A stretch of DNA of 64,000 nucleotides. Origin: Gemmatimonadales bacterium (GTDB lineage Bacteria; Gemmatimonadota; Gemmatimonadetes; Gemmatimonadales; GWC2-71-9). Below are positions 4,922 through 54,616 of this stretch, piece by piece. Below the pieces are notes generated by a model, which was not told the DNA's origin, ran no database searches, and saw only the letters and a list, made by a program, of their open reading frames with translations. The position numbers and the translations under genes were made by a program. How positions within the stretch are numbered: the stretch's first letter is position 1; each line of letters opens with the position of its first letter. Location: positions 10,784 through 74,783 of the forward strand of contig DASTUF010000084.1 in assembly GCA_035759745.1 (NCBI GenBank), given 5' to 3'.

Positions 4922-4984
4922 CTGATCCCTGATCCCAGGTCCCTGACCCCTGACCCCACGCCTCACGTCCCACGCCTCACGCCC
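4922..4984. repeat. single-armed array of nine tandem heptamers (CTGATCC x2, CAGGTCC, CTGACCC x2, CACGCCT, CACGTCC, CACGCCT, CACGCCC)
   Basis: Read directly from the sequence; period 7 with no gaps, beginning 11 nt after the gpx stop. No complementary arm nearby. Confidence 0.9.
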
Positions 4985-5114: not shown

Positions 5115-5510
5115 ATGCTGAAGACGATCCTTGCCGCAGATCTGCGGTTCGCCGCTCGGAAGAGCGGCTTTCTGGCGTTGCTGGCGCTTGCCTCGCTGAC
5201 TGTTGCGGCATGCGACGATGACACCAACGAACCCGAAGTGGGCAATCTCGACGTTACCGTGACGGTCACCGGCGAGGGCGCCGACGCTGACGGCTTCGAC
5301 GTCACGGTTGGAACAGCTTCAATCGGCCCGGTAGCGGCCACTGGCGGCACCGTGTCCGCCACGGCCCTGGCCACTGGCGATACGCAGGTCACGCTGACCG
5401 GCCTGGACGCCAACTGCTCGGTGGATTCCGCCACCAAGACCGCTACGATTACCGATGGCGACACCACCGACGTGACGTTCGAGGTGAGCTGCTCCGCCGT
5501 AGCGGTATAG
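5115..5510 (+). CDS. hypothetical lipoprotein
   Basis: MLKTILAADL...LALASLTVAAC gives a signal peptide plus lipobox. The mature part is Thr/Asp/Gly/Val-rich and looks beta-rich. Confidence 0.6.
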   Translation: MLKTILAADLRFAARKSGFLALLALASLTVAACDDDTNEPEVGNLDVTVTVTGEGADADGFDVTVGTASIGPVAATGGTVSATALATGDTQVTLTGLDANCSVDSATKTATITDGDTTDVTFEVSCSAVAV

Positions 5511-8677: not shown

Positions 8678-8680
8678 CAA

Positions 8681-8784
8681 GTGGGGAGTGGGGAGTGGGA
8701 AGTGGGGAGTGGGGAGTGGGGAGTGGGGAGTGGGAGGTGGTCTCTACTTCCTACTTCCCACTCCCCACTTCCCACTTCCCACTC
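8681..8784. repeat. heptamer hairpin (GTGGGGA/GTGGGAA flavour) with unequal arms
   Basis: The G-rich arm has 8 heptamers plus GTGG (8681-8740), then loop TCTC, then a C-rich arm TACTTCC x2, CACTCCC, CACTTCC x2, CACTC (8745-8784). The right arm encodes the last residues of the ligase. Confidence 0.9.
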
Positions 8785-13882: not shown

Positions 13883-13953
13883 AGGCGTGGGGCGTGAGGC
13901 GTGCGGCGTGGGGGTTTTGCCTCACGCCCCAGGCCCCACGCCCCACGCCTCAC
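13883..13953. repeat. heptamer hairpin (GGCGTGG/GGCGTGA flavour)
   Basis: AGGCGTGGGGCGTGAGGCGTGCGGCGTGGGGG (13883-13914), loop TTTTG, then CCTCACGCCCCAGGCCCCACGCCCCACGCCTCAC (13920-13953). The upstream gene's stop lies inside the right arm. Confidence 0.9.
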
Positions 13954-14915
13954 CAGGCGACAGCGATCCCATCCGGCCCCGCGCCGGTCTTGAAGCGCCG
14001 CACTTCCTCCAGCGTGCGCAGGTCCACCATCGCGGCCTCGTCGGTGCCCTGGAGCGACACGAACGCATAGGCGCCGTCGGGGCTGATGGCGGTGCCGACC
14101 GGCTGGCCATCGCCGAAGCTGATGGCCCGGCGCTCCGACCTGCTCGCGACGTCGAAGACGCGAAGCACGCCAGTCATCGGTGCCGGAACCAGCGCCGTCC
14201 CCCCGTCCGCCGAAATAGCCACCCGGTACGGCAACCCGGCGGCGGGAAGCGTGTCGAGCACCTTCCAATTCTGCGCGTCGACCACGGTCACGGTGTGGTC
14301 GGTGTTGCTGCCCACCCAGACCTCGCGGCCGTCGGGAGTTACCCCCACGCCCTCGGTGCGAGGCGCCACGTCGAGGCTGCGCACAGGAGTGCCGCCAACG
14401 AGGTCAATTTCAGTGATGGAATTGCTGCCGACGTTGGCAGTGAAGGCTCGGCGTCCGTCGGCAGTGACAGCCACCATGTGGGAGCCGCGCGCGTTGGTGG
14501 AAATAGCCCTTTCGACCACGCCCGTGGCGGGGTTCACGAGCAGCACTGCGGAGTTGGCTTCGACCGTCACTACAACCAGGGAGTCACCCGGTAGCACCAC
14601 GATGCCGTGGGGCCGTCGGTACTCGCCGAGGTCGATGGTACGCCGGACGCTGTGGGTGAGGAGGTCGATGACGGTGAGCGAACTGCCCGGTTCCTGGCCG
14701 CCGTAGTTGGCCACGATCGCCCACTCGCCGCTGCCCGCCACAGCCACTTCATGGGGGCCGCTGCCCGTTGGGACCGTCGCAAGCGCCTGCCCCGAGCCGA
14801 TCTCGATGATCGACGCGGTCGCTTCCTGCTTGTTGGCGACGATGAGGAGCGCACCGGCGGGAACTGCGGCCTGTGCCTGAGCCAGGATGGTGATGGCGAG
14901 GAGGAGGGAGGGCAT
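13950..14915 (-). CDS. secreted YVTN/YncE-like beta-propeller repeat protein
   Basis: Signal peptide MPSLLLAITILAQAQA followed by repeated ...V.PDG...V.N..S..V.V.D motifs. Confidence 0.8.
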   Translation of the reverse strand: MPSLLLAITILAQAQAAVPAGALLIVANKQEATASIIEIGSGQALATVPTGSGPHEVAVAGSGEWAIVANYGGQEPGSSLTVIDLLTHSVRRTIDLGEYRRPHGIVVLPGDSLVVVTVEANSAVLLVNPATGVVERAISTNARGSHMVAVTADGRRAFTANVGSNSITEIDLVGGTPVRSLDVAPRTEGVGVTPDGREVWVGSNTDHTVTVVDAQNWKVLDTLPAAGLPYRVAISADGGTALVPAPMTGVLRVFDVASRSERRAISFGDGQPVGTAISPDGAYAFVSLQGTDEAAMVDLRTLEEVRRFKTGAGPDGIAVAW

Positions 14916-14916
14916 A

Positions 14917-14966
14917 GGGGTCAGGGACTAGGGATCAGGGATGAAGTCCCTACGTCCCTCAAACCC
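14917..14966. repeat. GGGNNNN heptamer array (GGGGTCA GGGACTA GGGATCA GGGATGA) with a short complementary segment
   Basis: Read directly: four G3-4 runs at period 7, followed by AGTCCCTACGTCCCT. Confidence 0.8.
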
Positions 14967-14985
14967 GGAAGGGTTCGGCCCCTCC

Positions 14986-15018
14986 TACTTCCCACTCCCC
15001 ACTAACCACTCCCCACTT
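14986..15018. repeat. single-armed C-rich heptamer array (TACTTCC CACTCCC CACTAAC CACTCCC CACTT)
   Basis: Read directly. Lies 7 nt downstream of the tRNA-Phe 3' end in the minus-strand sense. Confidence 0.85.
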
Positions 15019-15024
15019 GATGCA

Positions 15025-15097
<73 letters not shown>

Positions 15098-17457: not shown

Positions 17458-17547
17458 CTAGTGGGGGGTGGGAAGTGGGAAGTGGGCGGACCCACATTCC
17501 ACTTCCCACTCCCCACTCCCCACTCCCCACTTCCCACTTCCCACTAG
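17458..17547. repeat. heptamer hairpin (GTGGGAA/GTGGGGA flavour) bounded by CTAG...CTAG
   Basis: G-rich arm 17458-17486, loop CGGA, then a C-rich arm about twice as long (17491-17547). Starts 1 nt after the upp stop. Confidence 0.9.
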
Positions 17548-19000: not shown

Positions 19001-19627
19001 GTGCGCCGTCTTCCTCGCCGGGTCGCCAAGCTGCTCGGCCTCCTCCTCGTCGTTGCCGTGATCACCTACACCATCTCATTGGTGGTCGTGCTGGTGACGA
19101 GCTTGCAGGACCAACGCGAGCCGGTAGATGCGATTGTGGTGCTGGGGGCCGCCCAGTACAACGGGCGGCCGTCGCCGGTGCTGCGGGCGCGGCTGGAACA
19201 CGCCCTGTCGCTGTATCGGGACCAGCTCGCACCCCGGATCATGGTCACCGGTGGGGTGGGCCGGGGCGATACCACCAGTGAAGCCGAAGTCAGCCGCCGC
19301 TGGCTGCTGGCACACCGGCTTCCTGATACCGCCGTGGTAGCGCTCCCGCGGGGCCGGTCGTCAGCCGTCTCGATGACCGACGCCGCCGCCTGGCTGCGCG
19401 AACGCGGGCTCAGCCGGGTGCTGCTGGTGAGCGATCCCTTTCACATGGCTCGTCTGCGGTTCGAGGCGCGGCGCACCGAGCTCGACGCGCTGGTGTCACC
19501 CACGCCATCGAGTCCGATTTCCGACAACCCGAACCTCGAACTGCGCTACCTCTTCTGGGAAGGACTCAAGGCTCCGGTTGCGTGGGTACGGAGCTGGTCC
19601 TGGCTGCGAGACCGCGATGTGTTCTGA
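19001..19627 (+). CDS. YdcF/DUF218 family protein (ElyC/SanA-like)
   Basis: N-terminal TM helix and DAIVVLGAA...RL..A..LY......I.VTGG, typical of DUF218. Confidence 0.8.
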   Translation: MRRLPRRVAKLLGLLLVVAVITYTISLVVVLVTSLQDQREPVDAIVVLGAAQYNGRPSPVLRARLEHALSLYRDQLAPRIMVTGGVGRGDTTSEAEVSRRWLLAHRLPDTAVVALPRGRSSAVSMTDAAAWLRERGLSRVLLVSDPFHMARLRFEARRTELDALVSPTPSSPISDNPNLELRYLFWEGLKAPVAWVRSWSWLRDRDVF

Positions 19628-36548: not shown

Positions 36549-37930
36549 CTCCCCCGCATTCCCGTCCCTACGACAACGTCCTCGATACCGTCGGCTGGAC
36601 CCCGCTGATCCGGCTGTCCCGGGTCGGCGCCGGGATCCGCACCCCGGTGTATGGCAAGGCGGAGTACGCCAATCCGGGCGGCTCGGTGAAGGACCGCATC
36701 GGCCTCGCCATCATCGAGGCCGCCGAGCGGGCGGGCGAACTCAAGCCCGGCGGCACCGTGGTCGAGGGCACCAGCGGCAACACCGGCGTCGGGCTCGCCA
36801 TGGCGGCCGCGCTCAAGGGCTATCGCTGCATTTTCACCATGCCCGACAAGATGTCGCAGGAGAAGGTCCGGCTGCTCAAGGCCTACGGTGCCGAAGTGGT
36901 CGTGACGCCCACCGCGGTGCCGGCGGATCACCCCGACAACTACGTGATGAAGGCCAAGCACATAGTCCACGATACGCCGGGCGCCGTGCTGGCCAATCAG
37001 TTCTACAACCAGGTCAACCCGGAAGCACACTATGCCACCACCGGCCCGGAGATCTGGGAGCAGACCGAAGGCAAGGTGACCCATCTGGTAGCGGGCGCCG
37101 GCACCGGCGGGACCATCAGCGGCGCGGGAAAGTTCCTCAAGGAGAAGAATCCGAAGATCCGGGTCATCGCCGGCGACCCGGTCGGATCGCTCTACAGCGG
37201 CTACGCTGCGACCAGGACGATGGGCGAGGGCCACCCCTACAAGGTGGAAGGCATCGGCGGCGACAAGATCCCCACCACGGTCTGGTTCGACGTGATCGAC
37301 GAATGGCGCCAGCTGCCCGACAAGGCCTCGATGAGCATGGCCCGGCGGATCGCCCGTGAGGAGGGCATCCTGGTCGGCGGATCTGCCGGGCTCAATGTCC
37401 ACCTCGCGCTGGACGTGGCGCGCGAAGCGGATGATCCGGCAGCGTGCGTCGTCACCATCCTGTGCGACACCGGCGAGCGCTACCTGTCGAAGTTGTTCAA
37501 CGATGCGTGGATGGAAGAAAACCAGATGCTGGATCGCGCCCCGGTCACGGTGGAGCAGCTCCTCGCCGAGCGCGATGGCGGCGCACCCGAACTGGTGAGC
37601 GTGGCGCCGGCGGCGGCAGTGCGCCAGGCGCTCAACCTGATGAGTTCATGGGGCGTGAGCCAGATTCCCGTCATCGACAACGGGACGTCCGTGGGGGGAC
37701 TCATCGAAGGCCAGCTCATGGCCCGCGCGCTGGCACAGCCCGCCATGCTGGACCGCCCGGTGCGCGAGGTGATGGAAGCGCCCTTCCCCGAAGTCGACGC
37801 CGCATTCCCGGTGGACCGGCTGGCACCGGCGCTCACCCGCGAGAGCCCGGCTGCGTTGGTGACCCGCGACGGCAAGGTGATCGGGATTGTCAGTCGGTAT
37901 GATCTATTGAAAAGGCTCATTGGAGCCTGA
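36545..37930 (+). CDS. cystathionine beta-synthase (PLP-dependent CysK/CBS family plus tandem CBS domains)
   Basis: The PLP-Lys region NPGGSVKDR, the GTSGNTG loop, and a C-terminal CBS pair. Confidence 0.9.
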   Translation: MTPPHSRPYDNVLDTVGWTPLIRLSRVGAGIRTPVYGKAEYANPGGSVKDRIGLAIIEAAERAGELKPGGTVVEGTSGNTGVGLAMAAALKGYRCIFTMPDKMSQEKVRLLKAYGAEVVVTPTAVPADHPDNYVMKAKHIVHDTPGAVLANQFYNQVNPEAHYATTGPEIWEQTEGKVTHLVAGAGTGGTISGAGKFLKEKNPKIRVIAGDPVGSLYSGYAATRTMGEGHPYKVEGIGGDKIPTTVWFDVIDEWRQLPDKASMSMARRIAREEGILVGGSAGLNVHLALDVAREADDPAACVVTILCDTGERYLSKLFNDAWMEENQMLDRAPVTVEQLLAERDGGAPELVSVAPAAAVRQALNLMSSWGVSQIPVIDNGTSVGGLIEGQLMARALAQPAMLDRPVREVMEAPFPEVDAAFPVDRLAPALTRESPAALVTRDGKVIGIVSRYDLLKRLIGA

Positions 37931-37988
37931 GGCGTGAGGCGTGGGGAAATACCTCACGCCCCACGCCCTACGCCCCACGCCCCACACC
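37928..37988. repeat. heptamer hairpin (GGCGTGA/GGCGTGG flavour)
   Basis: TGAGGCGTGAGGCGTGGGG (the first TGA is the CBS stop), loop AAATAC, then CTCACGCCCCACGCCCTACGCCCCACGCCCCACACC. The right arm is about twice the length of the left. Confidence 0.9.
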
Positions 37989-40879: not shown

Positions 40880-40909
40880 CCGTCGGTCGGCTGCCGCCGA
40901 CGGCTATTT
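40880..40909. terminator. weak hairpin between convergent genes
   Basis: CCGTCGG-N10-CCGACGG followed by CTATTT. Overlaps the mnmE stop region. Confidence 0.3.
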
Positions 40910-42256
40910 GCCGACGCAGAACTCGCTGAACACCCGTCCCAGCACCTCCTCGACATCCACCACCCCGATCAGCTCATCCAGCGCCAGCACGGCCTGCCGG
41001 ACGTGATGGGCGCACAGCACCGCGTCGCCGAGTGGCGCCGCGAGTTGAGCGCGGGCCACACCCAGCTCGCCGCGTGCACGTTCCAGCGCCACCCGGTGGC
41101 GGGTGCGCGTGAGCATCGGCTCCAGATCCGCCAGCTGCACCCGGTCACCGAAGAGTCTGTCGGCGATCGTGCGCCGGAGGTCCGCCAATCCTTGCCCCGT
41201 CACTACCGATACTCCATCTGACCGACCGGTCAGATCCGCCTTGGTATGGACAATGAGTTCAGAGTTGAGAGTTGAGAGCTGAGAGTTGAGATCCTTGGTC
41301 GGGACGAGGGTGGTCACTCTCAACTCTTGACTCTCAACTCTCGACTCGTCCGCACACACTAGCACTAAATCCGCACTATCCAGCCACCGTCGACTCACTG
41401 CGACACCCAGAGCCTCGATTCGGTCACTGGTGTCGCGAATGCCGGCCGTATCGACCAGCCGGACCGGCCAGCCGAGGAAGGTAACGTGCGCCTCGATCGC
41501 GTCCCTGGTGGTGCCAGGAACTTCGGTGACTATGGCTCGCTCGGAGCCCAGCAGCGCATTGAAGAGCGAGGACTTGCCCGCGTTTGGCCGACCGGCCAGT
41601 ACGACAAGGGCGCCCTCGCGGAGCCGAGTTCCTTCCGGCGCGGTGGACAGTAATGTGTCAATTCTGGCGCAGGTCTGGTCCAGCTGACTCTGGAGCCTGT
41701 CGGGCGCGATGGGCCCGTCGTCTTCGCCGGGGAAATCGATCTCGTAGCTGAGAAGGCCGAGCAGGTCGAGGAGCGAGCTGCGGAGTTCGAGGATGCGGCG
41801 GGAAAGGTTGCCGTCGAGCTGGGCCAGCGCTGCGCGCGCCTGGGCCGGAGCGGTCGCATCGATCAGGTCACCCACCGCCTCGGCCTGGACCAGGTCCATG
41901 CGGCCGTTGAGCACCGCACGGCGGGTGAACTCTCCAGCGGCGGCCTGGCGGGCACCGGCGGCGATGAGCGCGGCCAGCAGTCGTTCCGGAGCCACCAGAC
42001 CGCCGTGGCAGGAGAACTCGACGGTGTCCTCTCCGGAGTAGCTGGCCGGTGCGGGAAAGACGGTGTACAGCCCGCGGTCGATGGGCCGGTCGCCCGAATC
42101 GTGAAAGGTCGCGAGCTGGGCGACCCGAGGTTCGGCCCGGAATCCCTGCACTATTTTCGCCGCGATCTCGAATGCTCCGGGGCCCGCCAGCCGCACGATC
42201 GCCAGCGCCGAGCGGCCCGGCGGTGTGGCGAGCGCGACTATCGCGTCCCCGAACAT
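40904..42256 (-). CDS. mnmE: tRNA modification GTPase MnmE
   Basis: N-terminal DAIVALATPPG, G1 GRPNAGKSS, G3 DTAG, G4-like TKAD, and the C-terminal CVGK. Contains a heptamer hairpin in frame. Confidence 0.95.
   Translation of the reverse strand: MFGDAIVALATPPGRSALAIVRLAGPGAFEIAAKIVQGFRAEPRVAQLATFHDSGDRPIDRGLYTVFPAPASYSGEDTVEFSCHGGLVAPERLLAALIAAGARQAAAGEFTRRAVLNGRMDLVQAEAVGDLIDATAPAQARAALAQLDGNLSRRILELRSSLLDLLGLLSYEIDFPGEDDGPIAPDRLQSQLDQTCARIDTLLSTAPEGTRLREGALVVLAGRPNAGKSSLFNALLGSERAIVTEVPGTTRDAIEAHVTFLGWPVRLVDTAGIRDTSDRIEALGVAVSRRWLDSADLVLVCADESRVESQELRVTTLVPTKDLNSQLSTLNSELIVHTKADLTGRSDGVSVVTGQGLADLRRTIADRLFGDRVQLADLEPMLTRTRHRVALERARGELGVARAQLAAPLGDAVLCAHHVRQAVLALDELIGVVDVEEVLGRVFSEFCVGK
41255..41347. 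repeat. heptamer hairpin (GAGTTGA flavour) located inside the mnmE coding sequence
   Basis: GAGTTCA GAGTTGA GAGTTGA GAGCTGA GAGTTGA (41255-41289), a 25-nt loop, then ACTC TCAACTC TTGACTC TCAACTC TCGACTC (41316-41347). Confidence 0.9.
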
Positions 42257-42266
42257 GGGTCCCCGG

Positions 42267-43955
42267 CTACTTCCCGGACCTGGTCTTCACGTTGACGATG
42301 GCTGCCGCCACCTTCTTCCTGCGTTCGCGCGACAGCATCCATTGCTGGGGGATGCTGGCAATGTTGCTGACCGCGTAGTACAGGTTGAGCCCCGACGCGA
42401 GGTTGACGAAGAACACCGTCATCATCACCGGCATGACGTACAGCATCATCTTCATCTGCGGGTTGGGCTCCATGCCAAGCTGCCCCACCTTGCTCAGCAC
42501 GAACATCGAAAGTCCCATCACCACCGGGATGATGTACAGCGGATCGGCGCGAGCAAGGTCGGGCAGCCAGAGGAACGACTGGCCCCTGAGCTCGATCGCG
42601 TTCTGGAACACGAAGAACAGGGCGAACAGCACCGGCATCGGCAGCAGCATCGGCCAGCACCCGCTCAGCGGGTTGGCACCGTGTTCCTTGTACAGCCGGA
42701 ACATCTCCTGCTGCAGCAGCGCCGGCTGCTCCTTGTAGCGCTCCTGCGCCGACTTCAAGTGGGGCTGGATCTCCTGCATCTTCATGTTGGCGCGCATGGC
42801 CTTCTGGTTCAGCGGCCAGAGCAGCACCCGCACCAGGATCCCGAACAGCACCAGCACCACGCCGTACGCCAGGTTCAGCTGCTCATGCATCTGCACCAGC
42901 AGCCACCGCACCGGCACCGCGAAGAACTGGACCATGGTCCGGAACCCGGGCCAGCCATAGGGATTAACGTCGTCGAATTCGTGACCCAGGCTGGTCAGCC
43001 GGTCATACTCCATTGGCCCGATGTAACTGCGCCAGGAGAAGGTCCCGCTGGCCGGCACCGGCAGCACCGCGGCCGTGATCACCGTGTTCGGATCCTTGCC
43101 GGCCATCACTGGTGCCGTGGCCGTTACCCCGCTGATCCGGGGCGACTGGCCCGCCGAATCCACCGCGAAGAGGCTGGCCACGAAGTACATCGACTTGATC
43201 GCGGTCCACGCGAACGGGCCGTTGAGAACCTTGGTCTCGCCCGGGTCGAACGCCCTGAAGTCGGTCCGGTCGACCCCGCCAGCCATGGTAACGATGGCGT
43301 AGGACCGGAAGTTGAGCGATGAATCGGTTTCGGCGTTGTGGAGCCCGCTGCCGAGCGACACCAGCAGCGATGCGCCCTGGGGGGCCAGGGGGGTAACCGT
43401 GCCGGCCACCTCGACCTGATAGTCGGGGTGGAAGGTGTAGGTCAGCTGAACCGACGTACCGCCGCGCTGGGCCGAGAGCGTGAGTGGCGTCGGCCCGTCT
43501 ACGGTGAGCGCCGTGGCGCTGGGCTCGAAGGTCCAGTCCCGGAAATCGATAGTGTCCCGGCCATTGACCAGCGCCAGCCCGAAGAGCCCGTCACCCGGCC
43601 GGATGAGCTGGACGTTGCCCGAGTCACCCTTCGCCAGGGTGCGATACTCGTTCAACTCAGCGCCGACCAGTCGAGCACCGCGGGTGCTGATCCGCCAGGT
43701 GTAGAGCGGAGCACTGACGGTGACCAGCTGCTCGGCGGGCTGGTAGTCGCCGGTCGCGAGATTCGAGTCGGGAGGCGTGGCCTGCATGGCAGGCGCCTGC
43801 GCGGTCGGTGCTGTCGCCCCGCTGTCGGCGGGGAGCACGGTGTCGGCCGCCCCGACGGCAGGGGCGTTCCGGGCGGGCGGGCGCTTGAACAGGAATGTCG
43901 GGGCGAGTGCGATCACCATGATCAGCATGATCGCCCAGGCAAAGCGTCGGTCCAT
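42267..43955 (-). CDS. yidC: membrane protein insertase YidC
   Basis: Large periplasmic P1 domain plus the conserved C-terminal TM core (...WPLNQKAMRANMKMQEIQP...GCWPMLLPMPV...). Confidence 0.95.
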   Translation of the reverse strand: MDRRFAWAIMLIMVIALAPTFLFKRPPARNAPAVGAADTVLPADSGATAPTAQAPAMQATPPDSNLATGDYQPAEQLVTVSAPLYTWRISTRGARLVGAELNEYRTLAKGDSGNVQLIRPGDGLFGLALVNGRDTIDFRDWTFEPSATALTVDGPTPLTLSAQRGGTSVQLTYTFHPDYQVEVAGTVTPLAPQGASLLVSLGSGLHNAETDSSLNFRSYAIVTMAGGVDRTDFRAFDPGETKVLNGPFAWTAIKSMYFVASLFAVDSAGQSPRISGVTATAPVMAGKDPNTVITAAVLPVPASGTFSWRSYIGPMEYDRLTSLGHEFDDVNPYGWPGFRTMVQFFAVPVRWLLVQMHEQLNLAYGVVLVLFGILVRVLLWPLNQKAMRANMKMQEIQPHLKSAQERYKEQPALLQQEMFRLYKEHGANPLSGCWPMLLPMPVLFALFFVFQNAIELRGQSFLWLPDLARADPLYIIPVVMGLSMFVLSKVGQLGMEPNPQMKMMLYVMPVMMTVFFVNLASGLNLYYAVSNIASIPQQWMLSRERRKKVAAAIVNVKTRSGK

Positions 43956-43974
43956 GGGGCGTCAGGTCACAGGT

Positions 43975-44205
43975 TCAGGGAACGGGATCGGGCCCGCCGG
44001 GATTCCAGGGGTGGCACCGGGCCAGCCGTCGAATGGAGAGCCAGCCGCCCTTGAGAACCCCGTACCGGCTCAGTGCCTCGACTGCGTAGTGCGAGCAGGT
44101 GGGGTAGAAGCGGCAGGAAGCCGGCAGTGCGGCCGAGATGGTCACCTGGTAGCCGCGAATGAGAAGCATCAGCGCGCGCCGCGGCAGTTGGGACAGCGGG
44201 GGCAC
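43975..44205 (-). CDS. yidD: membrane protein insertion efficiency factor YidD
   Basis: [11 protein letters not shown]...HG...G..L...R..RCHPW signature. Confidence 0.95.
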
Positions 44206-44211
44206 GGGTCG

Positions 44212-44565
44212 TCACCTCTCGGGCGTCACGGCGTCGCGCCAGGCCGCCACTTGGCGACGCAGTTCGCCGAAGGGCTGGCCGTAGGCCTCGCGCCGGGCCC
44301 GGATGACCAGGTCCCAGGCGGGCGACTGTGGCAGCACGTCGCGGCGCCAGATCTCCCGCAGCTGCCGCCGCAAACGATTGCGGGCCACCGCGCTGGTTCC
44401 GTACTTCGGAACGATGAGACCCATGCGCGGGTGGCCCGTCAAGTTGTCAGCCCAGATCATTTCCAGATGTTCCGACCGCCGGCGCCGCCCCCGAGCGAGA
44501 CAGCGGCGGACATCAGCGGCCCGCGCGAGCCGGTTGGCCCGCCCGAGACGCTCGCCGTCCGTCAG
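44212..44565 (-). CDS. rnpA: ribonuclease P protein component
   Basis: The RnpA core ([25 protein letters not shown]) follows the Met at 44460. The conserved N-terminal part ([25 protein letters not shown]) lies upstream in frame with no ATG/GTG/TTG. The only candidate start is a CTG at 44565-44563 that overlaps the rpmH stop. The minimal call is 44212-44460. Confidence 0.75.
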
Positions 44566-44723
44566 GCGCTCCCGTGCTTCGACGGGATCGAGACGGTCAG
44601 CCGCTTCCGGCCCTTCTTGCGGCGGCGCGAGAGCACGTCACGGCCCCATCGGGTGGCCATGCGGGCGCGGAATCCATGCTTGGCAATCCGGCGCTTGTTG
44701 CGCGGACGGTACGACGGCTTCAT
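44562..44723 (-). CDS. rpmH: 50S ribosomal protein L34
   Basis: [42 protein letters not shown] is the canonical L34 sequence. Confidence 0.97.
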
Positions 44724-44785
44724 GAAACACTTCCTCCAGTGAGCCCGGAAAGCTATATGGGGACTGAAGTTTGGGCAAGCCCTTA

Positions 44786-44854
44786 GCGTGAACGGGAGCA
44801 GCAATCGCGTGAAAAGGTGGCCTCCCTTTCACGCTTTTTCCTTTCCGTTCACGC
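44786..44854. repeat. nested hairpin (GCGTGAA flavour) in the rpmH-dnaA intergenic region
   Basis: The outer stem pairs GCGTGAACGG (44786-95) with CCGTTCACGC (44845-54). The inner stem pairs GCGTGAAAAGG (44807-17) with CCCTTTCACGC (44824-34). Confidence 0.8.
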
Positions 44855-44880
44855 AGTTGCTGTTCCCGCGGTTTTGGTAT

Positions 44881-44909
44881 TTGACTTTTCCACACACGAC
44901 CCGTAACAT
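44881..44909 (+). promoter_or_regulatory. candidate sigma70-type dnaA promoter with an embedded DnaA box
   Basis: TTGACT (44881-86), a 17-nt spacer, then TAACAT (44904-09). TTTTCCACA (44886-94) is one mismatch from the TTATCCACA consensus and overlaps the -35/spacer. Confidence 0.4.
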
Positions 44910-44949
44910 CCCTCGCCCTTGGAACAACCCTCAGCTTTTTCGAGTGTAG

Positions 44950-46335
44950 ATGCAGCAGTCCGCCCGGGACGCGTGGAAGCGTATTCTCGATTCCGCCAAG
45001 CGCGATCTACCCGATCACACGATCCGCACCTGGCTCGAACCCACGGAAGCCATCGAGTACGACGATGGCCGCCTGGTCGTCGCCGCGCCCGATCAATTCG
45101 CGGTTGAATGGAACGAGACCAAGCACGCCCCCGTGCTTGCCCGCATCGCGCAGGAAGTGCTGGGCGAGCCGGTGACGCTGGTCTTCCGGGTCCAGGAGGA
45201 CCGCCAGCGCCGCCCGCAGATGGACTTCTTCGTGGCGCCTTCGCCCGCGGTGGCGCCGCCGGCGGTGCCCGTCAATCCCAGTAGCCAGCCGCTCAACGAG
45301 CGCTACGGGTTTGCCCAGTTCGTCATCGGCAAGTCCAATGAGCTGGCGGCCGCGGCCGCCCACGCGGTGACGTCGGCGCCGGGCAAGACCTACAACCCGC
45401 TCTTCATTTATGGCGCCACCGGGCTGGGCAAGACCCACCTGATGCAGGCCATCGCCCACAAGGTGCTGGAGAACAACCCGGACTCCCGGGTACTGTATGT
45501 GGGCGCCGAGCAATTCATCAACGAAGTCATCGAAAGCATCCACAGCCGGACCATGCCGGAGTTCCGGCGCCGGTACCGGAGTGACGTGGACCTCTTCCTG
45601 GTGGACGACGTGCATTTCCTTGAGGGCAAGGAAATGACCCAGGAGGAGTTCTTCCACACCTTCAATGCGCTCTACGAGGCGGGCAAGCAGATCGTCCTGA
45701 CGTCGGACCGCCCGCCCAAGGAAATCCCGAACCTCGAGGCCCGGCTGGTCAGCCGCTTCGAATGGGGCATGGTGGCCGACGTGGGCCAGCCCGACCTGGA
45801 GCACCGGATCGCCATTCTGCGGAAGAAGCAGGAGCAGGACCATCTCGAGCTCACCATTCCGGACGACGTGCTCCGCTTCATCGCCGAGCACGTCCGGACC
45901 AGCGTGCGCGAGCTCGAGGGCTGCATCATCAAGATGCTGCTCTACGCCTCGCTCAAGCACCGCGAGATTTCCATTGAGCTGGCCCGCGAGGCCCTGGCCG
46001 ACAAGATCCGCTCCGACGATGACGAGCTCGAACCCGAAGCACGGCCGACCATCTCGCGGGTGCAGGAGGTCGTCGCCCGCCGCTGGGGTGTCACACCCGA
46101 GGGGCTCCGGAGCAAGGCCCGGATCAAGACCCTCACCGTGCCGCGGCAGATCGCGATGTACCTCGCGCGTGAGGTGCTGCAGATGCAACTTGTGGAAATC
46201 GGCCAGGCCTTCGGCGGCCGCGACCACTCGACAGTGATTCACAGTGTCGACAAGGTGCAGCGACAGATGCAGCGCGATCGCACATTTCGCGAGCGCGTGG
46301 AGCACGCCAGGCACGAAGTGGTGACAGCCGGCTGA
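44950..46335 (+). CDS. dnaA: chromosomal replication initiator protein DnaA
   Basis: AAA+ Walker A GATGLGKTHL, sensor motifs, and the C-terminal DNA-binding domain (...GGRDHSTVIHS). Confidence 0.98.
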   Translation: MQQSARDAWKRILDSAKRDLPDHTIRTWLEPTEAIEYDDGRLVVAAPDQFAVEWNETKHAPVLARIAQEVLGEPVTLVFRVQEDRQRRPQMDFFVAPSPAVAPPAVPVNPSSQPLNERYGFAQFVIGKSNELAAAAAHAVTSAPGKTYNPLFIYGATGLGKTHLMQAIAHKVLENNPDSRVLYVGAEQFINEVIESIHSRTMPEFRRRYRSDVDLFLVDDVHFLEGKEMTQEEFFHTFNALYEAGKQIVLTSDRPPKEIPNLEARLVSRFEWGMVADVGQPDLEHRIAILRKKQEQDHLELTIPDDVLRFIAEHVRTSVRELEGCIIKMLLYASLKHREISIELAREALADKIRSDDDELEPEARPTISRVQEVVARRWGVTPEGLRSKARIKTLTVPRQIAMYLAREVLQMQLVEIGQAFGGRDHSTVIHSVDKVQRQMQRDRTFRERVEHARHEVVTAG

Positions 46336-46582
46336 GCGTCACCCACAGAATCTTCCACGCGTTGAAAGCGGGAATGTAGGTAATCTGGACGACGGGGATT
46401 TTCGGGGGTTGGGAAGCGCATTCGTCCCCATCCCCCACGGAGGTCCAACACGAACGGAGCGCTGGAGACAGTGCAGTACGTAGGAGTTGTGCCGCCGGTC
46501 CACATTTCCGGCCTCTCTACTACTACTGCTATATCTCTTAAATTGGTGAAGTAGTCTTAATTAGAGCCATCCGAGGAGAGGC
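46336..46582. other. candidate oriC / DNA-unwinding region (dnaA-dnaN intergenic)
   Basis: DnaA-box-like sites TCACCCACA (46339-47), TCTTCCACG (46351-59) and CGGTCCACA (46496-504). (TAC)3 at 46518-26, then a conspicuously AT-rich tract to about 46566 in an otherwise GC-rich genome. Confidence 0.5.
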
Positions 46583-47695
46583 ATGAAGTTCTCGATCACG
46601 CGCGAGCAGATGCAGGAAGGACTCGTCGCCGTCGCGGCAGCGGTGCCGTCGAAGACGACACTGCCGGTGCTCTCGAATATCCTGGTCGAGGCGGGCAAGG
46701 ACGGGATCCGGCTCTCGGGCACCGACCTCGACGTCTCGGTGAGCACGACCGTGAGCGCATCGGTCGACCAGGAAGGCGCCATCACGCTGCCGGCCCGCAA
46801 GCTGGTCGAGATCGTGCGCGAACTTCCCAGCGCCTCGATCCGGATCACAGGATCGGGTGAGCAGCGGGTGTCCATCGAGTGCGGCCGGTCGCGCTTCAAG
46901 CTGCTGGGCCTGCCCAAGGAAGAGTTCCCCGCCTTTCCGGCAGTCAAGTTCGACAAGGCCTGGCGGGCGACATCGGGCGACCTCCAGAAGCTCATCTCCC
47001 ACGTGGCGTTCGCCGCCAGCACCGAGGAAAGCCGCCCGATTCTCAACGGCGTGCTCTGGGAGCTCCGGCCTGAACGGATGCGCATGGTCGCCACCAACGG
47101 CCATCGCCTCGCCAAGATGGACGTCCCCGCCACCGCAGGCGGTGGCGCCCAGGCCGACCTCATCGTACCACCCAAGGCCCTGGAGCAGATCCGCCGGCTG
47201 TTTGGTTCCGATGAGGATGTCGAGATCGCCCGGAGCGAGAATCACCTCGCCTTCCGGACCGGTTCGACCCAGATCTACACCCGGCTGATCGACGGACCGT
47301 ATCCCAACTACGAGCAGGTGATTCCGCGGGAAAACGACAAGGTCGCCACCACCGACAAGGCGGCGATCGCGGCGGCGCTGCGGCGCATGAGCATCGTCGC
47401 CAGCGACCAGACCCACCGGATCCGGCTGGCCTTCGCCAATGGCTCGTGCAAGCTGTCGGTGCAGACCCCTGACCTGGGCGAGGCCCAGGAAGAGGTGACG
47501 GTGAGTTACGAGGGGGACCCGCTGGAGATCGGCTTCAACGCGGCCTACATGCTCGAGATCCTGAAGTTCATGCCCACCGACGAGGTGCGGTTCACCTTCA
47601 AGGCACCCGAGCGCGCGGCGACCTGCGAACCGGTGGGCTGGGACGACCCGGCCAGCTACCTCGCCCTGGTCATGCCACTCAGGCTCGTAGACTAG
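46583..47695 (+). CDS. dnaN: DNA polymerase III subunit beta (sliding clamp)
   Basis: MKFSITREQ...TLPVLSNILVEA...NGHRLA...MPLRL. RBS GAGGAGAGG upstream. Confidence 0.97.
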   Translation: MKFSITREQMQEGLVAVAAAVPSKTTLPVLSNILVEAGKDGIRLSGTDLDVSVSTTVSASVDQEGAITLPARKLVEIVRELPSASIRITGSGEQRVSIECGRSRFKLLGLPKEEFPAFPAVKFDKAWRATSGDLQKLISHVAFAASTEESRPILNGVLWELRPERMRMVATNGHRLAKMDVPATAGGGAQADLIVPPKALEQIRRLFGSDEDVEIARSENHLAFRTGSTQIYTRLIDGPYPNYEQVIPRENDKVATTDKAAIAAALRRMSIVASDQTHRIRLAFANGSCKLSVQTPDLGEAQEEVTVSYEGDPLEIGFNAAYMLEILKFMPTDEVRFTFKAPERAATCEPVGWDDPASYLALVMPLRLVD

Positions 47696-47712
47696 ACTAG
47701 ACTAGACTAGAC
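47688..47712. repeat. (TAGAC)5 pentanucleotide tandem repeat containing the dnaN stop codon
   Basis: TAGAC x5, read directly. This puts TAG in all three plus-strand frames. Confidence 0.9.
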
Positions 47713-47718
47713 TGGGAT

Positions 47719-47804
47719 GTGATTGGTGAAGGGTGAACGGTGATGGGTGATTGGGCGACTGCGCCTCCCTGCCCCGTTCACTCATCACCGCTCACTTTTC
47801 ACTC
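47719..47804. repeat. heptamer hairpin (GTGATTG/GTGAAGG/GTGAACG flavour)
   Basis: GTGATTG GTGAAGG GTGAACG GTGATGG GTGATTG (47719-53) pairs with CCGTTCAC TCATCAC CGCTCAC TTTTCAC TC (47774-804). The stop of the convergent gene lies in the right arm. Confidence 0.85.
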
Positions 47805-51029: not shown

Positions 51030-51053
51030 GGGCCCCCGAAGTTCGGGGGCCCA
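51030..51053 (-). terminator. rnpB terminator hairpin
   Basis: On the minus strand GGGCCCCCGAACTTCGGGGGCCC is followed by ATTTCTGTTG, directly after the 3' strand of the P1 stem. Confidence 0.6.
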
Positions 51054-51418
51054 TCGGGCCAGGCCGTAAGCCGAGTTCTGTTCCGTCCGCCGGAGCGGAG
51101 GGATGATCATCTGTCTGGGACGGTCGTCGCCGACCGCCTCGTGCAGCCTACCCGCGGCTCGGTCGGTGTGGGTCACACCTCGCCGCTTATTTGGCCTTGC
51201 TCCGGCTGGGGGTTACCGTGCCACCACCGTTACCGGCGGTGCGGTGGGCTCTTACCCCACCGTTTCACCCTTACCCGACGGTTGCCCGCCTGGCGGTCTG
51301 TTCTCTGTGGCCCTGTCCGTCGCCTTGCGGCGCCCAGGCGTTACCTGGCAGCCTACCCGTTGGAGCTCGGACTTTCCTCCAGACGCTTCCGCGCCCAGCG
51401 ACCATCACGCCCGGCCCA
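51054..51418 (-). ncRNA. rnpB: RNase P RNA, bacterial type A
   Basis: The reverse complement contains the universally conserved blocks GGAGGAAAGTCCGAGCTCC, GGGTAGGCTGCCAGGTAACGCCTGG, CACAGAGAACAGACCGCC, GGTAAGGGTGAAACGGTGGGGTAAGAGCCCACCGC, CCGGAGCAAGGCCAAATA, AGACAGATGATCATCC and ACAGAACTCGGCTTA. P1 pairs GGGCCGGGCGT with ACGGCCTGGCCC. Ends are accurate to about 5 nt. Confidence 0.92.
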
Positions 51419-51423
51419 CCCTC

Positions 51424-51429
51424 AATATA
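51424..51429 (-). promoter_or_regulatory. candidate -10 box (TATATT) for rnpB
   Basis: TATATT on the minus strand lies 6-7 nt upstream of the predicted P1 5' end. Confidence 0.4.
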
Positions 51430-51460
51430 CCCGGGCGGCCGGCGGGCCGCCCCTAATCCT

Positions 51461-51502
51461 CACTTCCCAATTCCCACTTCCCACTTCCCACTTCCCACTT
51501 CA
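51461..51502. repeat. single-armed heptamer array (CACTTCC x4, CAATTCC, CACTTCA); G-rich on the minus strand
   Basis: Read directly. The kinase stop codon is the last triplet of the array, and no complementary arm is nearby. Confidence 0.9.
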
Positions 51503-54500
51503 ACCCCTGACCCCCGAAATCCCCGCCAGCCCCTCGCGCGCAAACCGCACGTAGCCCTGCAGCGACTCGTCGGCGTATTTCCATTGCTCCAGCACCCGTT
51601 CGTACTCGGTCCGGGCCTCGGCGGTGCGCCCCAGCCGGTGGAGCAGTTCCGCCCGCAGCAGCCGCACCCGTCCCAGCATGGCCCAGCGGGGATCGAAGCT
51701 GCCGGTGCGCAGCAACTCCGGCTCGTACCCCTCGAGCAGGGCGAGCGCGGTCTGGTACTCGCCCAGCGCAGCCCAGGCCTGGGCCGCGAGCGGCCTGCGA
51801 TACACCACGTACTTCTGCATCATGCCCTGGGCCGAGTCCGACTCAGCCAGCGCAGCGCGCGCGGTGGCCGAGTCAGCCCGCGTGATCTCGGTGCCGGACA
51901 GCGCCAGCAGTGCACGGACTTCGGCTGGGAGCGGCTGCCTGGTGAGCGCTGCGAGCTCGGTGACGGCAGTGGTATCCATCTGCAAGCCGGTGAAGAGCCC
52001 GATCGCGGCAGCAGCACCGCTGTTGAGGACCGGCTCGCGACGTTCCTCAGGTGCCTCGCGCGCGGCCTCGGCCGCGCTCTGCCACACCCGGCGCAACGCG
52101 GAGCCGGGTGCACCCGACGCGGCGTACAGTTCTCCCAGGGCAGTGCGGCTCCAGTTCCCACCACCGCCTGCCTCATCGCCGATGTAGGGATAGACCGACG
52201 ATCGCACCCGCTCGGCCAGCTCGATGGAGCGCGCAGCCGCGGCGAGGTCGCCCTGATAGGCAAACACGTTCGCGGCCGACGCTACATCGCCGAACACCGC
52301 CGGGGTGCTGGCGAGAGGGCGGAAGTCCTCCGGCCCGGTGGAATCGAGCGCGGCCCGCAACAACTCCGCCGCCTGCTCCACCCGCCCGGCGGCGAAATGC
52401 ACCTGGGCCTCGATGAACGGCGTTTCCGGGTGCTCCGTCGTTACGGCACGATAGCGTTCGATCTCGGATATCGCGCCGTCGAAATTGCGCGAGCCGACCA
52501 GTGCATCCACCAGCGCGCCGTGCGCCCGGGGAGCGGTCGGCTGGGTCGCAACCCAGGACTGGGCCAGGTTCACCGCGGTCGAACGTGCGCGGTCGGCATT
52601 GCGCGCGCGCCCCGCAGCGTCGGACGGTCGGGTGGCGGTTCGGGCCAGGGCGAACGAGTCATTGGCAAGCAACGCCACCGACGCGCCTTCCCGCGCGGCG
52701 CTGTTGAGCATCTGCTCGATGTGCTCGTACGCCAGCACATAGTCCGGGTCCAGCGCGAGGGTGCGCCGGAAGGAGCGCAACGCCTGGGTCATCGTTGCCG
52801 GCATCGAGTCGAGCCCCGACTCATCGTGGAACCAGGCTTCGCCCAGTCCGTACCAGGCGTCGACATCAGTGGAGTCGCGGGCGATCAGCTCCTGGTAGAG
52901 ATTCCGGGCGCTACCGTAGTCAGCCTCCAGAAATGCGCGGTAGGCCGCGATGATCTTGCGCTCGTGCAGCGGCAGCTTGGCGCTGAACGCGACCGCCCGG
53001 GCCATCGCGTGGTCGCTCACGGAATCCGCCGGGCCCACCATCCAGCCGCGGGTCAGCGCCAGCTTGTAGTACGCCAGCCCGAACGTACTGTCGGTGCGGG
53101 TGGCCTCGCGGAGCGCGCGCTCGGCGGAGGTGAGGTCCCAGTGATTGAGCGCCTCGACGCCCTGCAGATACGAGCGATACGCCGCGAGCGACCCGGTGGT
53201 CGCCTGAGTCAGCGCGGTGCGCGCCTGAGCCGGAGCCCCGGCCAGGTCGAGCAACTGGAAGGCAAGCCGGTCGTACAGCAGGCGGGGGTCGGCCAGCGCC
53301 GCGCCTGATGCCTCTGCCGTCTCGAGCGCCTCGCCCGAAGCCACATCATAGAGCGTCGCCACAACCCGCAGCGAATCACCTACCCGCTCGAACCGTCCCA
53401 GCGCCACCGTCCACACGCCGGCGTCGCGGGCAATCTCACGCGCCTCGTCCCGGCCGATCGCCTCGCCCTCGGCAACATTGTGCTGCTCCAGCAGGTCGTG
53501 CACCCGGTCTGCATCGACCAACTGCAGGTCATTCCACTGTGCCAGGCTCATCGTGAGAATGCTGACACTGCCGCTACCGAGCCACGCCACCGACGAATCG
53601 TTGCGCAGGTTGTCGAACGGGAGCACGAGCAGCGAGTGCCGGGGATTGACGCCTTCGGGCGGCCCGTTCGCGCGCCCGCTCAATGTCACGCCCAGCGCGG
53701 CAAGCAACACCGCGCCCAGCCCACCGATCATCGCCAGCCGCTTGACCTTCCGCCGGCGAGGCGGGGAGATCTCGCCGGCGATGGCCCGGCGGAAGTCCTC
53801 ACCTGACTGCCACCGCTGGGACGGATTCTTCTCCAGCGCATGCGCGATGGCGGCGGCGAGCGGTTCCGGCGTGTCGGGGCGGAGCTTGCGCACCGGTGGC
53901 GCCGGCTCGGCGATGTGGCGCGAGACCACGACCCGGTTGGGTCCCTCGAAGGGTGGCGATCCCGCGAGCATCTCGAACGCCACCACGCCCAGTGAGTAGA
54001 GATCGCTGCGCGAATCCACTTCCTCTCCCGCCGCCTGCTCGGGACTCATGTAGGCGGGGGTGCCCACCGCCACGCCGCTGGCGGTCCGCTCGCCGGTTTC
54101 CGCCTGCAGCAACACCCGGGCGATCCCGAAGTCGGCCAGCATCGCGCGGCCCGAGCCGCTGTCGAGCAGGACGTTCTCCGGCTTTACGTCGCGGTGAACA
54201 ATTCCCGCGTGGCTGGCGGCGTCCAGTGCCGCCGCGATGTCGGAAGCGATGCGTGCCACTTCGGCGGACGGCAGCCGGCGTTCGCGCAGCAAGCGCGCGC
54301 GAAGGGTTTCGCCCGGCACCTCGTCCATGACGTAGTAGAGCAGTCCCTCGCCGGTGCCGGCGGCATGGACGGTGACGATGTTGGGATGGCGCAGCCTGGC
54401 GATGGTGCGGGCTTCGGAGAGGAACCGCCGCGCGAGAGTCTCGTGGCCGGCCAGTTCGGGATGGATGACCTTGATCGCGACCGGGCGGTCCAGCGTTACG

Positions 54501-54616
54501 TCGGTGCCCTGGAATACCACGCCCATGCCGCCGCGTCCCAACTCCCGCTCGACGCGGTACTGGGTGCCGAGCGCCCGGCGCAGGCGCTGGAACAGGTCGT
54601 CGGCGTCGTCGGTCAC
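51500..54616 (-). CDS. serine/threonine protein kinase with a TM segment and a large TPR-repeat C-terminal region
   Basis: Hanks kinase motifs (GRGGMGVV, AIK, HRDVKPEN, DFG, SPEQ), a TM helix near residue 300, and TPR-like repeats to the C-terminus. Confidence 0.9.
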   Translation of the reverse strand: MTDDADDLFQRLRRALGTQYRVERELGRGGMGVVFQGTDVTLDRPVAIKVIHPELAGHETLARRFLSEARTIARLRHPNIVTVHAAGTGEGLLYYVMDEVPGETLRARLLRERRLPSAEVARIASDIAAALDAASHAGIVHRDVKPENVLLDSGSGRAMLADFGIARVLLQAETGERTASGVAVGTPAYMSPEQAAGEEVDSRSDLYSLGVVAFEMLAGSPPFEGPNRVVVSRHIAEPAPPVRKLRPDTPEPLAAAIAHALEKNPSQRWQSGEDFRRAIAGEISPPRRRKVKRLAMIGGLGAVLLAALGVTLSGRANGPPEGVNPRHSLLVLPFDNLRNDSSVAWLGSGSVSILTMSLAQWNDLQLVDADRVHDLLEQHNVAEGEAIGRDEAREIARDAGVWTVALGRFERVGDSLRVVATLYDVASGEALETAEASGAALADPRLLYDRLAFQLLDLAGAPAQARTALTQATTGSLAAYRSYLQGVEALNHWDLTSAERALREATRTDSTFGLAYYKLALTRGWMVGPADSVSDHAMARAVAFSAKLPLHERKIIAAYRAFLEADYGSARNLYQELIARDSTDVDAWYGLGEAWFHDESGLDSMPATMTQALRSFRRTLALDPDYVLAYEHIEQMLNSAAREGASVALLANDSFALARTATRPSDAAGRARNADRARSTAVNLAQSWVATQPTAPRAHGALVDALVGSRNFDGAISEIERYRAVTTEHPETPFIEAQVHFAAGRVEQAAELLRAALDSTGPEDFRPLASTPAVFGDVASAANVFAYQGDLAAAARSIELAERVRSSVYPYIGDEAGGGGNWSRTALGELYAASGAPGSALRRVWQSAAEAAREAPEERREPVLNSGAAAAIGLFTGLQMDTTAVTELAALTRQPLPAEVRALLALSGTEITRADSATARAALAESDSAQGMMQKYVVYRRPLAAQAWAALGEYQTALALLEGYEPELLRTGSFDPRWAMLGRVRLLRAELLHRLGRTAEARTEYERVLEQWKYADESLQGYVRFAREGLAGISGVRG

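Follow-up and report, generated by a model that had tools for sequence, protein, structure and literature searches.

Probable slippage-driven origin and incidental G-quadruplex capacity of a heptanucleotide array between a kinase gene and rnpB in a Gemmatimonadales bacterium

The stretch of DNA analysed here (the window) comprises 64,000 nt of contig DASTUF010000084.1, from an uncultured soil Gemmatimonadales bacterium, and has a base composition of 67 % GC; its MnmE and RlmL-like proteins are 100 % identical to NCBI entries that bear the name of a Gemmatimonadales bacterium. On its minus strand, the gene for a Ser/Thr kinase is followed by rnpB, the RNase P RNA gene, and the spacer between them, of about 81-87 nt, contains an array of G-rich heptamers whose origin and G-quadruplex (G4) capacity are the subject of this work. 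In the direction of transcription, the locus contains the following features:

51500..51502, minus strand: stop codon TGA of the 1038-aa Ser/Thr kinase-TPR open reading frame (ORF; 51500..54616); the array begins at the next base
51460..51499, minus strand: heptamer array, AGTGGGA x4 (51499-51472), ATTGGGA (51471-51465) and a partial AGTGA (51464-51460)
51433..51452, minus strand: 8-bp all-GC hairpin, GGGCGGCC-CGCC-GGCCGCCC, -19.5 kcal/mol, with no U-tract
51424..51429, minus strand: TATATT box, 5-6 nt upstream of the 5′ end of the RNase P RNA, identified by sequence comparison
51051..51418, minus strand: RNase P RNA gene, bacterial class A, 285.7 bits, model positions 1-367

The Pfam domains Pkinase and TPR were matched on a protein identical to the window kinase, and Tandem Repeats Finder (TRF) describes the array with period 7, 5.9 copies, a score of 75 and 94 % matches. 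A preliminary description of this DNA had read, on the minus strand of 51461-51502, five G3 runs with 4-nt loops starting at the kinase stop codon, and this is precisely what the sense strand contains. The array is G-rich on the sense strand of both of its neighbours, doubling as the 3′ flank of the kinase gene and as the region 45-85 bp upstream of rnpB, and it is the only one in the window that is at once single-armed and G-rich on the sense strand.

The TATATT box is the sole conserved element of the spacer, being kept in all the readable orthologous spacers (L001/L002, L123, L124, L128 and L129; relatives are designated by L numbers), and is a putative -10 element of rnpB. Depending on the lineage, the -35 region is occupied by the GC hairpin, by a heptamer array or by kinase coding sequence, suggesting that rnpB either uses a promoter of the -10-only type or is processed from kinase read-through; a sigma-70 promoter scan of 51300-51620 gave no match. 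According to the comparison of orthologous spacers, the GC hairpin is confined to the window lineage. It is followed by GGGUAUAUU, so that the GC stem-loop plus U-tract typical of intrinsic (Rho-independent) terminators does not occur in the spacer, and a scan for such terminators in 51300-51620 likewise found no terminator-like site. The terminal codons of the kinase gene are themselves heptamer-like in the window (51503-51533, TCGGGGG TCAGGGG), where they form a further sense-strand G4 motif within the ORF (51504-51533), as well as in L123 ((TCAGGGG)2, 2425-2439) and in L129 (AGGTGTT AGAGGTT AGGGGTT, ~910-935). The ORFs at 8751, 6035, 13950 and 37928 also end inside arrays, and these C-terminal tails thus appear to be array-derived.

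Relatives, which contain orthologs of the RNase P RNA gene, share the synteny from the kinase gene to rnpB but differ in the spacer. The orthologous spacers are given here in order of kinase identity to the window:

Window, kinase identity 100 %: spacer of about 81-87 nt, 4+1 units
L129, kinase identity 94 %: spacer of 26 nt, no array
L128, kinase identity 91 %: spacer of 64 nt, 6.6 units directly abutting TATATT
L130, kinase identity 91 %: scaffold gap within the array, at least 3.6 units
L123, kinase identity 87 %: spacer of 72 nt, no array, GAGGTAGAA x2 instead
L124, kinase identity 56 %: different unit (GGGTCTA) x7.7, plus a short inverted arm

Additionally, four Logan contigs (L001-L004) encode a 100 % identical kinase; L001 and L002 contain three AGTGGGA units, versus four in the window, within a spacer of 80 nt (3+1 units), and L003 and L004 end inside the array. 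At this one site there is, then, copy-number polymorphism at the shortest distance, presence and absence of the array among close relatives, and replacement of the unit. An assembly artefact was considered and rejected, the array being found in independent assemblies (window, L001-L004, L128 and L130). The 3-unit allele is also unlikely to result from collapse, because the perfectly periodic stretch is only 31 nt long, too short to contain repeated 31-mers (assuming a Logan k of 31).

Heptamer periodicity is non-random across the whole window. TRF returned 19 rows of period 7, and 13 arrays of this period reached a score of at least 40, versus 0.00 in 50 Markov-1 shuffles; the excess is specific to period 7, with nothing comparable at periods 5, 6, 8, 10 or 11. 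Heptamer arrays occupy at least eleven loci of the window; for the four first cited as single-armed, the flanking genes were assigned by Pfam scans and statistics of GC at third codon positions (GC3). Nine of the approximately 11 loci contain a stop codon or lie 0-10 nt from one, and strong hairpins, of about -37 to -103 kcal/mol, are predicted in eight of them. The arrays and features to which we refer below are:

4922..4983, plus strand: two adjacent single-armed arrays, (CTGATCC)5 and (CACGCCT)4, 10 nt past the gpx stop codon
8680..8783, no strand assigned: two-armed array (AGTGGGG)8 / (ACTTCCC)5 between convergent genes (SnoaL/ligase), found by TRF
13884..13953, no strand assigned: two-armed array (GGCGTGG)4.3 / (GCCCCAC)5, from the stop of a YNCE-like gene to the start of an rlmL-like gene
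14917..15017, minus strand: composite insert with two arms and an inner hairpin, from the 3′ end of tRNA-Phe to the start codon of the YNCE-like gene
15025-15097, minus strand: tRNA-Phe, directly 5′ of the array at 14986-15018
17460..17545, no strand assigned: two-armed array (AGTGGGA)3.9 / (CCCACTT)7.9, from upp to a beta-CASP nuclease gene, both on the plus strand
37928..37985, no strand assigned: two-armed array (TGAGGCG)2.3 / (CACGCCC)4.4, beginning at the stop codon of the PALP-CBS gene

The ligase ORF terminates inside the right arm of the array at 8680-8783. Arrays of AGTGGGR occur at four sites of the window, and sister arrays lack any G3 run (GAGTTGA, AAAGGTG, GTGATGG and TAGAC); the common denominator of the arrays is period 7, rather than G-richness. 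The window contains 17 canonical G4 motifs, versus 8.2 ± 3.0 expected, and this roughly two-fold excess corresponds to the heptamer arrays, since 8 or 9 of the 17 motifs sit in them. Searches of Rfam at gathering thresholds found nothing over any array and matched only the RNase P RNA and tRNA-Phe in the window.

The other comparable arrays of the window are absent, or down to a single unit, in relatives at ~88 %. Those of YNCE/rlmL, upp/beta-CASP and gpx (4922-4983) are absent in both L131 and L132, the YNCE/rlmL spacer of L131 being 6 nt long. At the PALP-CBS/ddl junction, relatives contain a 0-10 nt spacer with a single GGGGCGT "seed", and the seed at the PALP-CBS stop reads GGGGCGTAG versus (TGAGGCG)n in the window; at the dnaN stop, (GACTA)2 in L129 corresponds to (TAGAC)5 in the window. 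In the SnoaL/ligase spacer, the 8 and 5 units of the window correspond to one GGGGAGT...ACTTCC pair in L131 and to a two-armed array of 8-mers in L132, and although the repeat units differ, all three lineages have a hairpin there. Overall, the window arrays look as if slippage had expanded local seeds and hairpin stems that were already there. Close relatives also contain tandem arrays of period 8, some of them two-armed, at or near sites with period 7 in the window (3037-3065, 12095-12132 and 19392-19416 in L131, and the dnaN 3′ spacer of L128/L130), which indicates that the period is not strictly 7 in this clade.

Two further array sites lie in or at the edge of the origin-type gene cluster. 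The two-armed array (GAGTTGA)5.3 / (ACTCTCA)4.6 (41255-41347) is in frame within mnmE (ORF 40904..42256, minus strand), an essential tRNA-modification GTPase gene, and encodes the stretch ESRVESQELRV...LNSQLSTLNSEL between the G3 and G4 motifs of the GTPase; nonetheless, the window MnmE can be aligned over its whole length with a solved MnmE structure of 454 aa (PDB 9hip). This loop is hypervariable among relatives at 81-90 % and is encoded by different arrays, such as (AGTGGGA)4 in L128 (10922-10948), giving SGKWEVG, (AGTGAGA)4 in L130 (10922-10951), an imperfect inverted repeat in L129 (~10905-10990) and a twofold GHEAQAT in P0014, and it is short and ordinary in relatives at 66-70 %. At 47688-47795, (TAGAC)5 begins in the last codons and stop of dnaN and is followed by a two-armed GGTGAWN hairpin (-43.9 kcal/mol) that precedes a convergent YtxH-like gene; this 3′ spacer is 1 nt long in L129, with its (GACTA)2, and contains a two-armed 8-mer array (GGGCGGTA) in L128/L130 (~4390-4480).

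The preliminary description had quoted the strings at 14917-14940 (plus strand) and 4922-4956 (minus strand) exactly, and had correctly placed the array at 14986-15018, G-rich on the minus strand, directly 3′ of tRNA-Phe. Its statement that the arrays have no complementary arm applies to 51461 and 4922-4983, but not to 14917-14941 and 14987-15017, which are of opposite polarity, lie 45 nt apart and are predicted to pair with each other. In the insert at tRNA-Phe, an inner hairpin (~14946-14985) separates a C-rich arm of TCCCTGA-type units (14917-14941) from a G-rich arm of AGTGGGG-type units (14987-15017), one of which is disrupted. In relative L131 (88 %), the 3′ end of tRNA-Phe is just ~4-5 nt from the start codon, suggesting that the two arrays and the inner hairpin are one 109-nt window-specific element. 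The predicted fold of 14905-15024 has a minimum free energy (MFE) of -53.8 kcal/mol, with a z of only -1.28 versus dinucleotide shuffles, so that fold energy alone is not significant; as any sequence with G-rich and C-rich parts folds well, considering it a single element is based mainly on the polarity, the pairing in the MFE structure and the single insert with respect to L131. The arms pair in the predicted fold, in which no G4 appears even when G-quadruplexes are allowed. Nor is the G-rich arm a canonical motif, as had been supposed, because one unit reads AGTGGTT and leaves loops of 10 and 8 nt, which the G3+N1-7 regular expression misses; and the array at 14917 is not at a gene 3′ end, abutting instead the start codon of the YNCE-like gene.

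The preliminary description had the arrays read as G-rich on whichever strand is transcribed together with the gene upstream. This is true at 51461 and at 14986/14987, but not at 4922/4957, where the arrays (4922-4983) are C-rich on the sense strand because gpx (glutathione peroxidase) and a lipoprotein-like ORF (5073-5510) are both on the plus strand, nor at 14917-14941, which is G-rich on the plus strand, yet the YNCE-like gene and tRNA-Phe are both on the minus strand. The surplus units of the two-armed arrays at 17491 and 37955 are also C-rich on the sense strand. We then have a scan of reference genomes for AGTGGGR x3, with at least 118 loci from other genomes and crude gene calls (long ORFs plus GC3). 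Among the matches listed, single-armed arrays between co-directional ORFs were G-rich 8 times on the sense and 24 times on the antisense strand (p = 0.007); with a looser detection of arms, low-GC loci gave 4 sense and 13 antisense cases, and high-GC loci 1 and 2. The direction agrees with that of the Anabaena repeats, 18 % on the same strand versus 34 % on the opposite one (Rehm et al., 2015; PMC4692102). There is no sense-strand bias of the G-rich strand, either in the window or among these matches from other genomes.

The G-tracts are also no better conserved than the loops: the 36 AGTGGGR-type units of the window contain six changes at G-tract positions and three at loop positions, and in the mnmE loop (AGTGGGA)4 of L128 is replaced by (AGTGAGA)4 in its close relative L130. 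Units without G3 in the same genome, and AT-rich heptamers dominating low-GC genomes, suggest that unit composition follows genome composition. Resemblances of the units to anti-Shine-Dalgarno or CsrA (GGA) motifs were considered and given no weight, as numerology.

The kinase-rnpB array is a good candidate to fold in vitro. Having a single arm, it leaves the G-rich sense strand free, which could fold into a three-tetrad G4, and its RNA has no competing hairpin (0 kcal/mol). ViennaRNA with G-quadruplexes predicts for the array alone a three-tetrad G4 of -9.0 kcal/mol, and allowing G-quadruplexes takes the MFE of the spacer from -27.6 to -35.8 kcal/mol; the G4Hunter scoring that had been proposed for it gave a peak of 1.56. 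The minimum of four G-tracts for an intramolecular G4 is exceeded in the window, with five, and four are still present in the L001/L002 allele. The oligonucleotide (GGGAATC)3GGG, near-identical to the unit of this array, forms a K+-dependent G4 by circular dichroism (CD) with a T1/2 of 50.4 °C, and the T1/2 of GGGG-type heptamers exceeds 95 °C (Rehm et al., 2015; PMC4692102). From the lack of a competing hairpin, the predicted fold, the G4Hunter score and this oligonucleotide, it is likely that the array could form a G4 in vitro. Matches to the G3+N1-7 expression were found at 51473-51496(-), 4934-4957(-), 14906-14926(+), 8683-8734(+) and 17463-17486(+), the last two bearing out the statement that the G-rich arms at 8681-8740 and 17458-17486 satisfy it. 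A functional G4 in the two-armed elements is not borne out, however, as hairpins of about -38 to -103 kcal/mol dominate there and a G4 adds at most ~2 kcal/mol through surplus units.

We consider it probable that the kinase-rnpB array is a young, hypermutable heptanucleotide microsatellite driven by slippage, with an incidental G4 capacity that is probably a by-product of a unit composed of GGG and four bases. Arrays would be seeded by short direct repeats or hairpin stems already present at gene ends and would grow and shrink through replication slippage, the units being homogenised within each arm. The inverted second arm would probably arise by template switching, or because both halves of a stem already present expand, giving two-armed arrays that could form long hairpins in DNA and RNA. 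Arrays would persist where extra sequence is tolerated, such as post-stop spacers, the final codons of ORFs and the permissive MnmE loop, and would turn over within the divergence separating proteins ~90 % identical; this turnover suggests selective near-neutrality.

The arrays belong to an already described class of G-rich heptamer repeats. Rehm et al. (2015, PLoS One, PMC4692102) described G-rich heptamer simple sequence repeats (SSRs) in Xanthomonas (GGGAATC) and Nostoc/Anabaena (GGGGA(C/T)T), mostly intergenic and often overlapping the stop codon of the preceding ORF or lying within 50 bp of it, with some copies inside genes, with copy number and sequence varying between close species, and with 70 of 186 repeats in Xcc forming inverted pairs. 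They proposed G4 and i-motif formation, showed it in vitro by CD and identified no function, so that the G4 idea has already been proposed and biophysically tested for these repeats and is not new here. The kinase-rnpB array resembles this class in its head-to-tail heptamers, each with a run of at least three Gs and 3-4 loop bases (AGTGGGA x4 and ATTGGGA), in its intergenic position, starting at the base after TGA, and in its variation (the orthologous spacers contain 0, 3, 4 or 6.6 units or another heptamer). It differs in the unit, which is GGGAAGT, with GGGGAGT, GGGGCGT and GGGATCA nearby, instead of the published consensus GGGAATC / GGGGAYT; in the host, with G4 formation by the window units being a prediction; and in that the series of orthologous spacers directly documents gain, loss and unit replacement.

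Exact AGTGGGR arrays were found at no fewer than 77 cyanobacterial loci and at least 41 loci from other groups, which include, among the matches listed, Thermoanaerobaculia, other Acidobacteriota, Gemmatimonadota, Armatimonadota, Planctomycetota, Verrucomicrobiota, Chloroflexota, Bacteroidota and others; many of those from soil lineages are alike in having several unit types, often as inverted pairs. Cyanobacterial STRR heptamers, such as STRR1 (CCCCAGT), were reportedly described by Mazel and coworkers in 1990. They are similar in being dispersed tandem heptamers with several unit families per genome, and AGTGGGR arrays are common to the cyanobacterial loci above, but they were defined in heterocystous cyanobacteria and have AT-richer units, as opposed to the mostly inverted pairs of a 67 % GC Gemmatimonadales host. 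The TAACTGA direct repeats of marine Beggiatoaceae, Cyanobacteria and Bacteroidetes (MacGregor, 2015; PMC4679880) are likewise intergenic, variable in copy number, patchily distributed and associated with contig breaks inside the repeats, with a regulatory role suggested, not demonstrated; they consist, however, of a single AT-rich unit without G-runs, mainly just upstream of start codons, and one indirect (inverted) set was reported. The same work summarises earlier studies in which, among the long SSRs of bacteria, those of seven nucleotides are the most frequent, possibly owing to polymerase slippage. Neither heptamers nor these phyla are treated in a 2025 paper on short tandem repeats across the tree of life.

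Several points weigh against slippage as a full explanation. The same small set of unit families is found again at scattered sites and in different phyla, which random slippage does not obviously predict; it does not account for the preference for period 7 either, and by itself it can hardly account for a 109-nt composite insert arising from a spacer of ~4-5 nt. All the lineages with an array at the kinase-rnpB spacer (window; L128/L130; L124, with another unit) are G-rich on the sense strand, although these are effectively two or three independent cases and the pattern is not significant. Lastly, the crude gene calls of the cross-genome scan may also affect its strand counts.

That same orientation is one of the reasons to contemplate a functional G4, either in RNA at the 3′ end of the kinase mRNA or in the non-template DNA 45-85 bp upstream of rnpB, which would modulate termination, 3′-end stability or the activity of the rnpB promoter. 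The five G3 runs free of a competing hairpin, the MFE prediction and G4Hunter score, the stability of the published oligonucleotides (PMC4692102) and the L128 array abutting the putative -10 box also favour it. Nevertheless, the array is missing in relatives at 94 and 87 % with the same kinase-rnpB synteny, and its copy number ranges over 0, 3, 4 and 6.6, differing by one unit even among contigs with identical kinases. The lack of an overall sense-strand bias (as in Anabaena), the G-tracts without preferential conservation, with the natural AGTGAGA variant of L130, the sister arrays without G3 and the fact that two of the four arrays first cited as examples are C-rich on the sense strand all point in the same direction. 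Bacterial transcriptomes are, moreover, reportedly depleted of RNA G4s, and ectopic ones harmful, according to work attributed to Guo and Bartel (2016). We thus find a working G4 unlikely, and the proposal of G4s positioned at stop codons, with a part in termination, RNA stability or replication conflict, gained no support from an array that is absent from two close relatives: what stands of the preliminary description is, in part, its observations and, for 51461-51501, the G4 motif, but not a functional role.

The hairpins at most loci, with their stop codons inside or 0-10 nt away, could alternatively be REP/BIME-type elements acting as terminators, barriers to 3′ exonucleases or operon insulators, the kinase array being a degenerate case in which the adjacent 8-bp GC hairpin does the job, and the SnoaL/ligase hairpin, present in three lineages with different units, would fit with this. 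We regard it as quite improbable, since the hairpins lack U-tracts and the 51300-51620 scan found no terminator-like hits, spacers of 0-10 nt suffice at the same junctions in relatives, one hairpin array is inside the mnmE ORF and the GC hairpin is not conserved. Selection at the RNA level was also sought through the asymmetry of G-U wobble pairs, by folding both strands, and the sense strand was more stable in just one of the five testable hairpins. REP/BIME elements resemble these arrays as abundant, hairpin-forming intergenic repeats at gene ends, with a lineage-specific sequence, but a REP is one imperfect palindrome of 20-40 nt, disseminated by RAYT transposases and containing no tandem heptamers. 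A MITE/REP-like mobility was rejected: neither the inner hairpin nor the loop nor the GC hairpin has a second copy in the window or in any of the loci examined (a short left-flank probe was uninformative), near-identical copies including the core, together with a transposase, were not found there, and no RAYT-like gene was noticed among the window ORFs examined.

We attach very little weight to a bolder combination, an active unit-specific process common to cyanobacteria, xanthomonads and soil phyla that starts arrays at stop codons and inside essential genes whose loops tolerate them (such as mnmE), with the array upstream of rnpB being a working G4 that tunes the kinase mRNA 3′ end or the transcription of RNase P RNA. 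Least probable of all is a dedicated sequence-specific system that makes, spreads or binds the arrays, be it a mobile-element-like process or a heptamer-periodic single-strand-binding protein, which would explain the recurrence of the same units across sites and phyla (AGTGGGR at four window sites and at least 118 loci), the insertion-like tRNA-Phe composite and the binding of CspB to heptamer direct repeats, one protein per heptamer (noted in MacGregor, 2015; PMC4679880), but is countered by non-repeat parts that are single-copy in all sequence examined, by no target-site duplication or conserved termini being seen, by the local unit seeds and the period-8 arrays of relatives, and by no candidate gene being identified in the window.

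Some observations in the window are independent of these arguments. The region 40904-47695 is an origin-type cluster in which dnaA and dnaN, on the plus strand, face mnmE, yidC and small minus-strand ORFs that correspond to the genes annotated as rnpA and rpmH in syntenic relatives. In keeping with the origin mentioned in the preliminary description, the window contains dnaA-like and dnaN genes at 44950-47695, whose orthologs in syntenic relatives carry DnaA domains; the cumulative GC skew falls steadily across the window, with no inflection at 40904-47695. A degenerate heptamer array (CGCGACT), with ~9 copies and 70 % match, lies inside the yidC ORF of L128 and L130 (8446-8506), and YidC has 568 aa in L128/L130, 562 aa in L129 and 563 aa in the window ORF. 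The PALP-CBS gene of L128 (14221-15604) was called as two ORFs (306 + 134 aa) versus one 461-aa gene in relatives, which may be due to a frameshift or an assembly error. Lastly, a non-coding block of ~120 nt (~4990-5115) ahead of the lipoprotein-like ORF, reading TTCAATCCGCAACTCGCGTGACCTGCGCCACAGGCAACCCGG...GTGACGATTCCCCA..TGGCACATTCACAA.TGGAGTTGCTGCATG, is strongly conserved in the window, L131 (~19210-19330) and L132 (~9150-9280), and the adjoining spacer is not; this block, for which Rfam gave no match at gathering score, may be a leader or regulatory element.

These results extend to Gemmatimonadales a published but little-studied class, that of G-rich heptamer microsatellites with G4 potential. 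To the published work they add orthologous spacers at 100 %, 94 %, 91 %, 87 % and 56 % kinase identity, which show gain, loss, copy change and unit replacement at one site, and the single-unit seeds visible at other sites. The series argues that matches to G4 motifs in bacteria can be by-products of microsatellites, and that they should not be taken as regulatory without controls for strand bias and conservation. Why the period is 7, and why units recur across phyla, could be well addressed in this lineage, for which a 2.9-Mb contig exists.

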